DNA of 32,000 nucleotides from an uncultured Actinomycetes bacterium. GTDB lineage: Bacteria > Actinomycetota > Actinomycetes > S36-B12 > CAIYMF01. Positions within the stretch are counted from its first letter, which is position 1. Every line of letters begins with the position of its first letter. A program made the translations under genes and the position numbers. The notes under the pieces are model-generated. The model saw nothing but the letters and a program-made list of their open reading frames with translations. It ran no database searches and was not told the DNA's origin. The DNA is taken from assembly GCA_963843975.1 (NCBI GenBank), contig CAWJMG010000003.1, forward strand, positions 570,001 through 602,000, in the 5' to 3' direction. Below, one piece after another: positions 11,606-29,416 of the stretch.

Positions 11606-11747
11606 GTCATGGAAATCCATGACCGCCAGAGACCAGAACGGGCACACCCGCCGCGAGGCGGGGTCGCAAAGCCAGGGGACCCTCCGGGTCGGCCCAGCTA
11701 CCTCGGTCCATCCGGTCGACGGCGGTCGTCCTTCAGGAGGAACACCA
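11606..11747 (+). promoter_or_regulatory. structured 5' leader of pilin 2; candidate c-di-GMP-I (GEMM-I)-like riboswitch
   Basis: Same architecture as 10920-11057. P2 is CCCGCC-GCGA-GGCGGG (an A:U pair replaced by G:C). The core segment GTCGCAAAGCC is at 11663-73. P1 is GACCGCC paired with GGCGGTC at 11621-27 and 11721-27. Confidence 0.45.
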
Positions 11748-22893: not shown

Positions 22894-23405
22894 GTGGCAC
22901 CTCGCGTCGTCCTCGTGGGCGTCCCCGGCTCGGGCAAGTCGACCGTCGGGGGCGTGCTCGCCGAGCGCCTCGGCGTCTCCCTGCGCGACACCGACCGGGA
23001 CATCGAGAGGGCAGCCGGCAAGCCGATCTCCGACATCTTCGTCGACGACGGCGAGGCGCACTTCCGAGCGCTCGAGCGCGCAGCGGTTGCCGCGGCGATC
23101 GCCGAGCACGACGGCGTCCTCGCCCTCGGCGGCGGCGCGGTCCTCGACGAGGGCTCGCGTGCACTTCTCATGGACCAGAGGACCGTGTGGCTGCAGGTGA
23201 GCGCGGCGGGTGGCGCCAAGCGCGTCGGGCTCGACGTGCCGCGGCCCGTGCTGCTCGGCAACGTCCGCGGTCAGCTGGCGGCGCTGGTCGCCGAGCGAAG
23301 CCCGCTGTACGCCGAGGTCGCCACGATCACGCTCGAGACCGACACCCGCACGCCGGCCGAGGTCGCCGAGCTCGTGATCGAGGAGCTCGGTCTGGAGGTC
23401 GCGTC

Positions 23406-23409
<4 letters not shown>
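22894..23409 (+). CDS. aroK: shikimate kinase
   Basis: 171 aa. VVLVGVPGSGKSTVG P-loop and the DTD..IE..AG..I..IF motif. GTG start. Confidence 0.9.
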
Positions 23410-24926
<1,517 letters not shown>

Positions 24927-24927
<1 letters not shown>

Positions 24928-26003
24928 TGTCCCTCGCGCGGCGGGACGCCGTCCGGGCGCAGCTCGAGGAGCGTGGCCTGGACGCCCTTCTGGTCACTTA
25001 CCTCACCAACGTGAGGTACCTGTCCGGGTTCAGCGGGTCGAACGGCGCGGTCGTCGTCGCCCGGGAGGCCAAGCACGACAGGCTGATCACCGACTTCCGG
25101 TACGTCACGCAGGCCGCCGCCGAGTGCCCCGGGATCGGCGTGGTCGTGGAGCGGGCGGTCGACGGCGGTGGAGCGGCGTACGCGGTGTCGCTCGGTTCGG
25201 CACGCCTGGGCATCGAGGCCGCGCATCTCACCGTGTCGTCGCACGACGGCCTGCGGTCGGCCCACCGCGACCTCGACCTCGTGGCCACCACGGGCGTCGT
25301 CGAGGGGCTGCGCTCGACCAAGGACGACGTCGAGCTGGCCCATCTGGCCGAGGCCTGCCGGATCTCCGACTCGGCCCTCGCGGCGCTGCTGCCGCAGGTT
25401 CGCGTCGGGATGACCGAGCGGCAGGTGGCCCGGCTGCTCGACGGCCTCATGCTCGACCACGGAGCCGAGGCGGTCTCGTTCGAGACGATCGTGGCGTCGG
25501 GCCCCCACTCGGCCATCCCGCACCACAGCCCGACCGGTCGCGCCATCGAGGCGGGCGACTTCCTCAAGATCGACTTCGGGGCCCTGTACGCCGGCTATCA
25601 CGCCGACGAGACCCGCACGTTCGTCGTCGGCGCCGACCCCGAGCCCTGGCAGGTCGAGATCCACGAGCTCGTGGCGAGGGCCCAGCAGGCCGGCGTGGAC
25701 GCGCTCGCCGTGGGCGCGGACGTGCGTGACGTCGACCACGCGGCCCGCTCGGTGATCGCTGCGGCGGGGCACGCCGAGCACTTCGGGCACGGCCTCGGGC
25801 ACGGCGTCGGGCTCGACATCCACGAAGCGCCGATGATCGGCTACTCCGCGACGGGTATCCTGGGGGACCGCACGCCGGTGACCGTCGAGCCTGGGGTCTA
25901 TCTCCCTGGGCGAGGCGGGGTACGCATCGAGGACACCCTCGTCGTACACGCCGACGGGCCCGTGTCGCTCACCACGACGGCACGCGAGCTGCTCGTCCTC
26001 TAG
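24927..26003 (+). CDS. M24 family Xaa-Pro aminopeptidase/dipeptidase
   Basis: 358 aa. Creatinase_N-like N-terminus and metal ligand motifs [16 protein letters not shown] and [18 protein letters not shown]. The TGATG overlap is with aroQ. Confidence 0.88.
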
Positions 26004-26589: not shown

Positions 26590-27000
26590 GTGTCGGCACG
26601 GAGCAAGGCCCGCAAGAAGGCGCTCGACGTCCTGTACGAGGCGGAGGCCCGCGGCGTGTCCGCGGCCGACGTCCTCGACGCCACCACGGAGGCGGCGGTG
26701 CAGGGGATGAACCCGTACACCGCCGAGCTGGTGTGGGGCGTCGTCGAGCACGCGGACCGCATCGACGACCTGCTGGCGACGTACAGCATGGGGTGGACCC
26801 TCGACCGCATGCCCGCGGTCGATCGCAACCTGCTGCGTATCGGCACGTACGAGATCCTCTGGGGCGACGACGTCCCGGACGCGGTGGCGATCAACGAGGC
26901 CGTCGAGCTCGCCCGGTCGCTCTCGACCGACGAGTCGCCGAGCTTCGTCAACGGCCTCCTCGCCCGCATCCTCACGGTCAAGCCCAGCCTGGCCCTCTAG
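26590..27000 (+). CDS. nusB: transcription antitermination factor NusB
   Basis: 136 aa from GTG 26590. Contains ARKKALDVLYEAEARG and RMPAVDRNLLRIGTYEIL...INEAVELA...FVNGLLA. Confidence 0.9.
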   Translation: MSARSKARKKALDVLYEAEARGVSAADVLDATTEAAVQGMNPYTAELVWGVVEHADRIDDLLATYSMGWTLDRMPAVDRNLLRIGTYEILWGDDVPDAVAINEAVELARSLSTDESPSFVNGLLARILTVKPSLAL

Positions 27001-27002
27001 CT

Positions 27003-27054
27003 GCCACTGGTAGTCGATTCGCACGCTATAGGCCGCGAATCGACTACCAGTGGC
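27003..27054. repeat. perfect 20-bp inverted repeat with 12-nt loop
   Basis: GCCACTGGTAGTCGATTCGC-acgctataggcc-GCGAATCGACTACCAGTGGC, starting 3 nt after the nusB stop. The arms are 55-60% G+C and look lower in GC than the flanking coding DNA. Confidence 0.8.
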
Positions 27055-27077
27055 GGCCCAGGCGCTACGGTCCGCGG

Positions 27078-28425
27078 GTGAGCAGCCGGCTGTCGACGTC
27101 GCACAAGATCGGGTACGCCGCGGGCTCGGTCGGCACGGGCGGCTTCTCGACCGTCCCCGGCCTGCTCCTGCTCTACTACCTGACCGACGAGCTCGGCGTC
27201 GCCGCCGCCGTCGCGGGCCTCGTGGTGCTGCTGCCCAAGGCGTGGGACGTGCTCCTCAACCCGCTCGTCGGCAGCTGGAGCGACCGCACGACCTCGCGCT
27301 GGGGTGCCCGCGTGCCCTGGATGATCCGTGGCGCGCTGCTGCTGCCGGTCGCCTTCGCCCTCATGTTCTGGGCACCCGGTGGGCTCACCGGCGGGGGCGC
27401 GGCGCTCTGGGTGGCCGGATGCTTCCTGCTGGCGGCCACCGGCTTCGCGTTCTTCCAGGTCCCGTACATCGCGCAGGCCGCCGAGCTGCACGGACGACTA
27501 CGCCGAGCGCACGTCGCTCATGACCTGGCGCATCGCGTTCCTCACGCTGGCGATCCTGGTCTTCGGGGCGGGTGCGCCCGAGCTCGTCAAGGCAGGCGGC
27601 GACGGGCTCGCCGGCTACCGGCTGATGGGCGTCGTGTGCGGCGCGCTGTTCCTGCTCGGGTTCGGCGTCGCCATCCTCGCCACCCGCAACCTGCCCACCG
27701 TGCTCCGCGCCGAGCCCTCCGGCGGCCTGCGCGAACAGCTGCGCGCCGTGGGGGAGAACCGCGACTTCCGCGTGCTCTTCGCGGCGTTCGTGATCCAGGC
27801 GCTCGGCACGTCGACCGCTCTCGCCGGCGCGGCGTACGTCGCGGAGTACCTGCTCGGCGCGAAGGGGATGACCACGGTCCTGTTCGTCGCGCTGGTGGCC
27901 CCGGCGATCCTGCTCGTGCCGGTGTGGCGGCTGTTCGCCGCCCGCCGCGGGAAGCAGGCGGGCTTCCGCCTGGCAACCCTGTTCTTCCTCGCCGGAGCCG
28001 TGGTGATGGCGCTCGCCGGCCGGGTGCCCACATGGTTCCTGCTCGTCGGCGTGGCCGTCGCCGGCACCGGCTACGCCGGCCAGCAGCTCTTCCCGCTGGC
28101 GATGCTGCCCGACACGATCCAGGCCGATGCGCTGCGGTCCGGCCGCCTGCGCTCGGGCGTCTTCACCGGAGTCTGGACCGCGGGGGAGACCCTCGGCTTC
28201 GCGCTCGGCCCGTTCCTGTTCGCCATGGTGCTGGCGGCGGGAGGCTTCGTCGCGACGACCTCAGGGGTCACCGCGGACCAGCCGCAGAGCGCCCTGACCG
28301 CGATCGCCCTGGGCTTCGGCGCCGTGCCCGCCGTGCTGATGCTCGTCAGCCTCCCGGTGCTGCGCCGCTACACCCTCACCGAGCAGACCCTGAAGACCCT
28401 GACCGACTCCCACGTCCAGGACTGA
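27078..28425 (+). pseudogene. GPH-family (MelB-like) glycoside/cation symporter, frame broken by +1 shift at 27489
   Basis: Frame 3 gives VSSRLSTSHKIGYAAGSVGTGGFSTVPGLLLLYYLTD...FFQVPYIAQAAEL. Frame 1 then gives TDDYAERTSLMTWRIAF... through 12 TM helices. The extra C lies in CTG-C-ACG. Confidence 0.8.
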
Positions 28426-28682
28426 CCCCACCCCCGACCAGCCAGCGCGAGCGAAAGTCAGAGTCTCGAGGTCAGATGCTCAGCGAGGCCGAGAGCGAGG
28501 AGGGGGCCCGCAGGGTCCCCGACGAGATCGAGCGCGCGAAGCGCGCCGCCGAGCCACCCAGCGCGAGCACGCCACGAACGGCCCGGCCCGAGGACCGGAG
28601 GGGGCGCGCAGCGTCCCCTCGCGGGCCGAGCACGAGCGCAGCGAGCCAGGCCGAGCCTGCCGCGCAGCGGCAAGCCATACGG

Positions 28683-28756
28683 TGCCCCGAGTGGGATTCG
28701 AACCCACACTGGATGGTGTTTGAGACCACTGCCTCTGCCGGTTGGGCTATCGGGGC
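28683..28756 (-). tRNA. 74-nt class I tRNA, anticodon read as CAA (isotype uncertain)
   Basis: The reverse complement is GCCCCGA-TA-GCCC-AACCGGCA-GAGGC-A-GTGGT-CTCAAAC-ACCAT-CCAGT-GTGGG-TTCGAAT-CCCAC-TCGGGGC-A. It has a 7-bp acceptor stem, G18G19, a canonical T-arm and A73. No CCA is encoded. Confidence 0.85.
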
Positions 28757-28813
28757 GACGGTCAGCCAGCGTACCGGGCAGGAGCCGCAGGCCCGGTTCC
28801 GTAGGGTGTACGC

Positions 28814-29416
28814 GTGACAGCGAACGAGAGCGCTCTGCGGATCGTGGTGGCCGAGGATGAGGCGCTCATCCGCCTCGACCTCGTGGAGATGCTGCGCGAG
28901 GAGGGCTACGAGGTCGTCGGCGAGGCCGGGGACGGCGAGAACGCCGTACGCCTGGCCGAGGAGCTGCGCCCCGACGTCGTGATGCTCGACGTGAAGATGC
29001 CGGTGCTCGACGGCATCAGCGCGGCCGAGCGGATCGCCACCGCACGGATCGCCCCGGTCGTGATGCTCACGGCGTTCGCCCAGCGCGAGCTCGTGGAGCG
29101 GGCGCGCGACGCGGGCGCGATGGCCTACCTCGTGAAGCCGTTCACGCAGGGCGACCTCGTGCCCGCCATCGAGCTCGCCGTCAGCCGGTACGCCGAGATC
29201 GTGACCCTCGAGGCAGAGATCGCCGACCTCGGCGAGCGGTTCGAGACCCGAAAGCGCGTGGAACGCGCCAAGTCGTTGCTGCAACAGGCGTACAAGCTCT
29301 CGGAGACCGACGCGTTCCGGTGGCTGCAGAAGTCCGCGATGGACCGCCGCCTCACGATGCGCGAGGTGGCCGACGTGGTCATCCGCGAGGTCGGGGCCAC
29401 CGGCAGCGAAGGGTGA
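28814..29416 (+). CDS. pdtaR: ANTAR-domain response regulator (PdtaR-like)
   Basis: 200 aa. REC domain (RIVVAEDEALIRLDLVEML...DVVMLDVKMP...YLVKPF) followed by ANTAR (KRVERAKSLLQQAYKLSETDAFRWLQKSAMDRRLTMREVA). TAGGGT lies 6 nt before GTG 28814. Confidence 0.9.
   Translation: MTANESALRIVVAEDEALIRLDLVEMLREEGYEVVGEAGDGENAVRLAEELRPDVVMLDVKMPVLDGISAAERIATARIAPVVMLTAFAQRELVERARDAGAMAYLVKPFTQGDLVPAIELAVSRYAEIVTLEAEIADLGERFETRKRVERAKSLLQQAYKLSETDAFRWLQKSAMDRRLTMREVADVVIREVGATGSEG

Follow-up and report, generated by a model that had tools for sequence, protein, structure and literature searches.

A type I tRNA-Leu(CAA) gene, lacking the long variable arm, in an uncultured actinomycete and its relatives

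The DNA analyzed here, called the window, is a 32,000-nucleotide stretch from an uncultured Actinomycetes bacterium (assembly GCA_963843975.1, contig CAWJMG010000003.1, positions 570,001 to 602,000). The one tRNA gene that ARAGORN finds in the window runs from 28681 to 28756 on the minus strand and is assigned to leucine with the anticodon CAA. The Rfam model RF00005 covers positions 28683-28756 of the same strand from end to end with 57.2 bits and an E-value of 5e-10 (gathering score 29). The neighbors of the gene are a frameshifted MFS_2 transporter gene on one side and, on the other, the divergent gene of an ANTAR regulator. The tRNA gene and its parts are as follows.

28683-28756, minus strand: type I tRNA-Leu gene with anticodon CAA, 74 nt counted from G1 through the discriminator A73 (ARAGORN, Rfam)
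28731-28747, minus strand: D-arm of Leu-like layout, with a stem of 3 bp (GCC/GGC), C13 and A22 mismatched, and A14 and G18G19 in the loop AACCGGCAGA
28720-28722, minus strand: anticodon CAA (Sprinzl positions 34-36), reading UUG, in the 7-nt loop CUCAAAC (28718-28724)
28708-28712, minus strand: variable loop CCAGU, 5 nt, compared with the 13-17-nt arm of type II tRNA-Leu

In the fold, the acceptor stem has 7 bp (GCCCCGA/TCGGGGC), the anticodon stem has 5 bp (GUGGU/ACCAU) including one G:U pair, and the T-arm GUGGG-UUCGAAU-CCCAC is followed by A73. U8, A14 and G18G19 are all present. The D-arm has an 11-nt loop region, and positions 13 and 22 are flagged as a non-pair in the Rfam alignment; the type II tRNA-Leu genes of the same genome have a matching 4+10+3 layout, GCGG-AAUAGGCAGA-CGC. 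Downstream of A73, CC is encoded in the DNA and the final A of CCA is not. The original prediction, which had been made from the sequence without database searches, described this 74-nt cloverleaf with its CAA anticodon, 5-nt variable loop and A73, and ARAGORN, Rfam and the sequence bear it out. It had also allowed that its register was wrong, and this can be dismissed because ARAGORN, Infernal and the covariation described below agree on both the fold and CAA.

The window tRNA does not have the long variable arm (more than 10 nt, with a stem-loop) of canonical type II tRNA-Leu. The other type II-like features of a leucine tRNA are found in it: the Leu-type D-arm, unpaired positions 13 and 22, the placement of G18G19, A73 and A37. 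Likewise, it shows the features of the Streptomyces coelicolor type, namely CAA in a 7-nt loop, a 5-nt variable loop, U8:A14, and CC after position 73. The gene is thus a new instance of the known and experimentally characterized type I tRNA-Leu(CAA). It is a real and conserved tRNA gene and, in our judgment, very probably an ordinary tRNA-Leu in function that lacks the long variable arm.

The S. coelicolor tRNA was characterized by Fan et al. (2019, Nucleic Acids Res 47:6369, PMC6614811), the only paper that our full-text search for type I bacterial tRNA-Leu yielded; a short-loop tRNALeu(UAG) from an accessory tRNA cluster is also mentioned in a paper on mycobacteria (PMC6582537). Besides four type II tRNA-Leu isoacceptors, S. 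coelicolor has a type I tRNALeu(CAA) with the 5-nt loop ACAGC, and its single leucyl-tRNA synthetase (LeuRS) leucylates both types, with a kcat/Km for type I about half of that for type II. U8:A14, C74 and the number of variable-loop nucleotides matter for the charging of the type I substrate and A73 does not. E. coli LeuRS is unable to charge this tRNA, human mitochondrial LeuRS charges it, and its gene could not be deleted (all PMC6614811). The statement in the original prediction that all bacterial tRNA-Leu belong to class II is therefore not correct. Nor is A37 unlike tRNA-Leu, as had been argued. It is normal in UUR readers: E. coli tRNALeu(CAA) and tRNALeu(UAA) bear ms2i6A37 (PMC4615657), and the long-arm genes of sister genomes have the loop CUYAAAC. 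C38 does depart from the A36-A37-A38 motif needed by E. coli MiaA, but it is also found in the type II genes of sister genomes.

We searched for homologues in 60 relatives, of which 27 are congeners (28 genomes of the genus with our own). The 74 nt are 100% identical in 10 congeners and 99% identical, with one base different, in 15 more, that is, in 25 of 27. Homologues from other families of the order are 81-93% identical. When eight congeners are aligned, no position of the tRNA varies, and the flanks have almost wholly diverged. All homologues adopt the same fold and keep CAA, or UAA in the paralogous set. Across 44 of 44 aligned homologues, position 34 is C or U and A35 and A36 are invariant, as are T8, C12, C13, A14, A15, G18 and G19. 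Twenty-one distinct 74-nt homologues align in 74 columns with zero gaps, and in this set standard pairs are formed in 99% of cells, with both partners changed in a compensatory way at 15 of the 20 stem pairs. Not one of 500 shuffles matched the observed values of pairing and compensation, and sliding the partner by one to three columns lowered pairing to 38-54%. Because compensatory changes occur in every stem, the fold is under selection, and the window tRNA as a whole is under strong purifying selection.

These results bear on the idea that the gene is an artefact, either another tRNA with a sequencing or assembly error in its anticodon loop or variable region, or a decaying pseudogene. The original prediction had raised a base-call problem in the loop, and the neighboring MFS transporter gene, which is split over two frames, lends this some color. 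However, the same 74 nt occur in 10 independently assembled genomes and, with one base changed, in 15 more. Since the anticodon is also invariant, a sequencing error is excluded. The loop lengths and the anticodon are the same across families, too. A pseudo or mutated tRNA of another isotype, also suggested earlier, does not fit a gene that is conserved, covarying and the only UUG reader found. We give the artefact explanation practically no credence.

The genome (4.19 Mb, 71.6% G+C, 3 contigs, 92.9% complete) contains 45 Rfam-supported tRNAs. Its leucine set consists of type II tRNAs with the anticodons CAG, GAG and UAG and of type I tRNAs with CAA and UAA. The second type I gene is the following.

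G000:C1:644164-644237, minus strand: sibling type I tRNA-Leu with anticodon UAA, Rfam 57.4 bits, CCA encoded

An acceptor stem starting with GCCCC, the loop CUYAAAC, A73 and the D-arm GCCC-AACYGGCAGA-GGC are common to the two type I genes. For CAA and UAA, our assembly has no type II tRNA-Leu gene. A pattern combining the type II D-arm with the YAA loop matches none of the genus's 28 genomes but gives 26 matches among 22 other relatives. No UUG reader other than the window tRNA was found in the genome, and no UUA reader other than the UAA sibling. Among the 45 tRNA matches, the one with the lowest score is a weak 78-nt tRNA-like sequence at G000:C1:587044-587120 (minus strand), which ARAGORN calls Gln(UUG) and Rfam scores at 38.5 bits; it could be a degenerate or unusual tRNA.

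Relatives differ in which of the two architectures serves which anticodon. Both CAA and UAA are type I in our genus and in G030, G033, G036, G042, G050 and G057. Type I CAA is accompanied by type II UAA, which is the S. coelicolor arrangement, in G031, G038-G041, G047, G048, G051, G052, G055, G059 and G060. The opposite, type II CAA with type I UAA, occurs in G045, and both anticodons are type II in G029, G037, G054 and G058. For a given anticodon, none of the 60 relatives has type I together with type II. The two kinds of gene thus replace each other across relatives, as functional equivalents would.

We then asked which amino acid is read at UUG by a Codetta-like tally that drew on two congeners (1.2 Mb) and a sister genus (0.4 Mb). 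Frames were chosen by G+C content at third codon positions (GC3), open reading frames (ORFs) were paired by BLASTP, and the partner residue opposite each codon was counted, ignoring columns where the partner has TTG or TTA. The genus-level comparison comprises 612 ORF pairs with a median identity of 84%.

Genus level, own TTG against the partner residue: 237 columns, Leu 55%, Phe 16%, Val 6%
Genus level, reverse direction, TTG: 245 columns, Leu 62%, Phe 11%
Sister genus G030 (with a type I CAA tRNA), TTG against our residue: 249 columns, Leu 68.7%, Val 9.6%, Phe 4.8%
Sister genus G030, CTG against our residue: 2637 columns, Leu 72%
Sister genus G030, CTC against our residue: 989 columns, Leu 70%

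In G030 the leucine share at TTG is at the same level as at CTG and CTC. For comparison, TTT is aligned with Phe in 68-71% of columns. TTA is rare, with 72 codons in the ORF set and 2 informative columns. Reassignment of the UUG codon was considered and is ruled out, as leucine is the plurality in every comparison. TTG is a leucine codon and the genetic code is unchanged; because TTG aligns mainly with leucine in relatives, the window tRNA reads UUG as leucine and does not recode it.

A recoding or mistranslating tRNA would look much like the window gene at first sight. Such a tRNA would have a class I body charged by a synthetase other than LeuRS, so that UUG would wholly or partly become another residue, as with tRNAProX (compared below). 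A class I shape with a Leu anticodon is the look of such hybrids, the acceptor stem GCCCC... with A73 resembles that of the tRNA-Arg genes of the same genome, and Phe is the second commonest residue at TTG (11-16% of the genus-level columns). On the other hand, leucine has a clear plurality at TTG and in G030 TTG behaves at the CTG rate. With no other UUG reader, about 2,400 codons would have been recoded, and the alignments carry no such signal. The D-arm layout and the anticodon loop are of the tRNA-Leu type, there is a single LeuRS and no synthetase paralogue nearby, type I and type II genes substitute for each other in relatives, and the S. coelicolor homologue accepts leucine (PMC6614811). 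Recoding or mistranslation is thus improbable, with only a slim chance of being right.

One LeuRS gene scores over the cut-off in the genome (TIGR00396; G000:C3:1427120-1429555, minus strand) and encodes 830 residues. The protein aligns with Thermus thermophilus LeuRS except that a leucine-specific domain (LSD) some 58 residues long is reduced to six. The linker reads QGMV-GMNGAT-MSKS, with 6 residues between QGMV and MSKS, and there is no LSD. By analogy with S. coelicolor, this LeuRS would leucylate the window tRNA. The same short linker is also found in each of the eight relatives from the order that were tested, carriers of type II Leu-YAA genes among them, and a linker of 6-8 residues occurs in most other sampled Actinomycetota, with or without the type I signature described below (LeuRS loci with the short linker: L231, L234-L241). 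In carriers of type I tRNA-Leu from Candidatus Synechococcus spongiarum, Bdellovibrionota and Zavarzinella, LeuRS has inserts of 40-86 residues. A strict link between loss of the LSD and type I tRNA-Leu was therefore considered and ruled out, since the short linker occurs with and without the signature and some carriers have inserts. LSD loss is thus not tied to type I tRNA-Leu, and the published LSD-dependent recognition cannot be general.

Several points speak against an ordinary leucine tRNA. First, S. coelicolor LeuRS has 967 residues with a 38-residue LSD, the last residues of which (L732/G733) are required for the type I substrate (PMC6614811). The LSD whose C-terminal residues that enzyme needed for type I charging is absent from the LeuRS of our genome, so the published recognition mechanism cannot apply here in detail. 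Second, at the genus level the leucine share at TTG is 55-62% compared with 88-89% at CTG and CTC, and Phe accounts for 11-16%. We attribute this excess of Phe to the mutational neighborhood, as TTC, a single step from TTG, outnumbers it about tenfold, and to the 257 columns with TTG on both sides that were set aside; low-level dual charging would be compatible with the same numbers. Third, the genome is 92.9% complete, and a missed type II Leu-CAA gene is formally possible, with none found in the 27 congeners either. Finally, the expression of the window tRNA and the amino acid attached to it are what we infer.

The following features flank the tRNA gene.

28768-28773, minus strand: TACGCT, a -10-like hexamer of the TANNNT type and candidate promoter element, 11 nt upstream of tRNA position 1
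28656-28674, minus strand: G+C-rich hairpin CTTGCCGC-TGC-GCGGCAGG, starting 9 nt (8 intervening) after A73, without a U-tract
28814-29416, plus strand: response regulator with an ANTAR RNA-binding domain (Pfam Response_reg 7.8e-27, ANTAR 9.2e-18), divergent from the tRNA gene

The -10-like hexamer had been noticed in the original prediction and is indeed present. Of 7 aligned congeners, 5 have it as TACGCT, TACCCT or TACGAT, and the other flanking bases diverge. A sigma-70 promoter consensus scan around the tRNA gene gave no match. The position and conservation of the hexamer suggest that it may act as a promoter. The hairpin was not called by an intrinsic-terminator scan that needs a T-run, and its sequence is not conserved among congeners. 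A processing or termination structure is possible, on weak grounds.

We propose that tRNA-Leu(CAA) is probably transcribed from its own promoter with the conserved TANNNT element. The transcript would be matured by RNase P and by 3' trimming, and a CCA-adding enzyme would complete the 3' end, which is needed because only CC is encoded. The single LeuRS would charge the tRNA with leucine, and the product would decode UUG at roughly 2,400 codons. The type I UAA sibling would do likewise for the rare UUA, and the three type II tRNA-Leu genes would read CUN.

The ANTAR gene adjoins the tRNA gene in 12 of 12 same-genus loci checked, with a different relative orientation in two of them. In these two congeners, G021 (L007) and G025 (L011), the tRNA gene is co-directional with the ANTAR gene, which sits just downstream. 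A small local rearrangement has taken place around a conserved tRNA-ANTAR neighborhood. We take the regulator gene as context and not as part of the function of the tRNA. Upstream are efp, a prolidase gene and aro genes, and downstream is a gene for a periplasmic binding protein. The surroundings contain no synthetase paralogue, Fem/MprF-type transferase, cyclodipeptide-synthase or LanB-type gene, or biosynthetic cluster. The tRNA gene is a single-copy, syntenic core chromosomal gene in a housekeeping context and not cargo of a mobile element.

The constant company of an RNA-binding regulator, together with the unusual architecture, could mean that the RNA serves outside translation, as a non-ribosomal aminoacyl donor (for the cell wall or peptide natural products) or as a regulatory tRNA-like RNA in T-box/ANTAR signalling. 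But the tRNA is the only UUG decoder in the genome and hence must serve translation. It has the full set of conserved tertiary elements (U8, A14, G18G19 and the TΨC loop), homologues in other orders and phyla lie in unrelated contexts, and the genes that might use a donor are not among its neighbors. We rate this alternative as very unlikely, slightly behind recoding. Of the non-canonical tRNA proposed in the original prediction, the architecture stands. Its recoding, mistranslating and donor versions do not, as TTG is a leucine codon and neither a synthetase paralogue nor a cluster adjoins the gene.

Other observations were made in the window. The MFS_2 sugar-type transporter at 26733-28425 (plus strand) is split over two frames, the N-terminal part in the ORF from 26733 and the C-terminal part at 27328-28425, which fits a single-base assembly error. 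One open frame at 23187-26003 (plus strand) carries fragments of 3-dehydroquinate synthase and type II dehydroquinase before a complete M24 prolidase domain, probably reflecting overlapping genes or frame errors in the aro-pepQ-efp region. A c-di-GMP-I riboswitch aptamer lies at 11631-11705 (plus strand; Rfam RF01051, 47.1 bits, gathering score 35).

Where does the type I form come from? The original prediction had called for an ARAGORN run and a comparison with the closest isotype; the former returns Leu CAA, and in the latter, type II Leu-YAA genes from sister genomes come closest among non-self sequences, with 56-57 of 74 identities. Other isotypes of the same genome reach at most 52 of 74. 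In the sister genomes' type II genes for Leu-CAA and Leu-UAA, the acceptor stem, the loop CUYAAAC and the GU before the T-stem are shared with the type I form, and the T-arm is identical. For the UAA sibling, pairwise identities show no clear nearest isotype. Most likely, a type II tRNA-Leu(YAA) lost its variable arm and gave rise to the type I form, which keeps the Leu-type D-arm layout, U8:A14, A73 and the CUYAAAC loop; these resemblances are suggestive, not decisive.

We surveyed an even sample of 401 Actinomycetota genomes from 249 genera for the signature CCAA-N1-3-GG-N1-2-AGAG-N8-CTYAAA. It is present in 89 of the 401 genomes (about 22%) and in 61 of the 249 genera, compared with 5 matches of a reversed control pattern. 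Five of the 89 are unpublished genomes (G071, G118, G218, G338 and G406), and without them the count is 84 of 396; nothing else in the analysis depends on these five. The survey examples that were fetched are called type I Leu-CAA or Leu-UAA by ARAGORN. A separate scan of named genomes used a pattern limited to variants whose variable loop has 6 nt or whose anticodon loop has 8 nt, and our own genus and S. coelicolor are not among its matches. The carriers that it did find include Nocardioides, Pimelobacter, Nocardiopsis, a Mycobacterium sp., Frankiales, Acidimicrobiales, Solirubrobacterales and Euzebyales. Outside the phylum, carriers are Zavarzinella, Pyrinomonadaceae, Deinococcales, Bdellovibrionota, Ca. 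Synechococcus spongiarum and some metagenome-assembled genomes (MAGs) of Pseudomonadota. The look-alikes of actinobacterial type I Leu(YAA) tRNA at L165, L147/L208, L183, L211 and L161 (Zavarzinella formosa, Pyrinomonadaceae, Deinococcales, Bdellovibrionota) have the D-arm motif CCAAYNGGNAGAG in common, which points to a distribution, or a horizontal spread, beyond one phylum.

Two sets of unusual copies were seen among the relatives. The type I Leu tRNA genes at L134:2952-3026 (minus strand; Ca. Synechococcus spongiarum) and L167:4336-4410 (minus strand; an Actinomycetota MAG) have their best fold with anticodon loops of 8 nt, CUUAAAAA and CUCAAAAC; the extra base could be a homopolymer error or could make these tRNAs four-base readers. 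In G181, G209 and G222, which belong to a genus of the same class with genomes of 5-6.5 Mb, the 5' half of the type I Leu(UAA) gene occurs 2-3 times per genome. Locus L284 (G222:C1:1314283-1317309) contains one such half-copy followed by unrelated sequence. The repeated halves look like attachment-site duplicates from integrated elements.

A broader proposal, which we put forward tentatively and think rather less likely to be right than wrong, is that type I UUR tRNA-Leu is a major and old architecture, repeatedly swapped with type II in Actinomycetota and sporadic in other phyla. If true, LeuRS would recognize type I substrates by a mechanism other than the published one. Repeated replacement would also point to a selective reason, such as escape from arm-specific tRNA nucleases or altered kinetics of rare UUR decoding. 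For annotation, class-I-shaped CAA and UAA tRNAs in high-G+C Gram-positives should be taken as tRNA-Leu and not as pseudogenes, suppressors or recoding tRNAs.

Four known systems can be compared with the window tRNA. Mistranslating tRNAProX with its ProRSx was reportedly found in Streptomyces and Kitasatospora by Vargas-Rodriguez and colleagues in 2021 and Schuntermann and colleagues in 2023. It has a proline body with Ala, Thr or Asn anticodons, usually adjoins a dedicated ProRS paralogue, and duplicates an existing decoder. The window tRNA is likewise actinobacterial and has an anticodon seemingly at odds with its body. It differs from tRNAProX in that the body is Leu-like, that no synthetase paralogue is nearby and that there is no second UUG decoder. 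Animal mitochondrial tRNALeu(UUR) also has a short variable loop, a UUR anticodon and A73, and is charged by a bacterial-type LeuRS. Unlike the window tRNA, it is organellar, A+U-rich and structurally fragile, and there is no evidence of common descent. The identity sets of the mitochondrial and the S. coelicolor type I tRNAs differ as well, since S. coelicolor LeuRS does not charge animal mitochondrial tRNALeu(UUR) (PMC6614811).

Canonical type II tRNA-Leu (E. coli leuX and leuZ; G029, G037, G044 and G060) shares with the window tRNA the anticodons, the CUYAAAC loop with A37, and A73. The D-arm layout of type II Leu-YAA (3-bp stem, 13.22 mismatch, AAYNGGYAGA loop) is alike as well, and in sister genomes the T-arm and the 3' acceptor strand are near-identical and the gene fills the same slot in the tRNA set. 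Type II Leu-YAA differs in its arm of 13-17 nt in place of 5 nt, in G instead of A at positions 9 and 26, and in G instead of C at position 13.

The closest known system is the type I tRNALeu(CAA) of S. coelicolor. Both tRNAs come from the same phylum, have the same anticodon, a 5-nt variable loop (CCAGU here, ACAGC there), U8:A14, G18G19 and A73, and each occurs together with type II isoacceptors and a single LeuRS and is alone in reading UUG, a fairly common codon. In the same class, a genus with genomes of 7-10 Mb has a type I Leu-CAA with the loop ACAGU and the same D-arm motif, CCAAC..GG..AGAG. Two differences stand out: the UAA isoacceptor is type I here and type II (bldA) in S. coelicolor, and LeuRS has 830 residues without an LSD here, compared with the longer, LSD-containing enzyme there. 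The present analysis turns a biochemical observation in a single species into a phylum-wide pattern, with strict either/or replacement of type II by type I genes. It goes beyond Fan et al. (2019) in a genome whose UUR readers are both type I and whose LeuRS has no LSD, and in a signature carried by about 22% of the sampled Actinomycetota.

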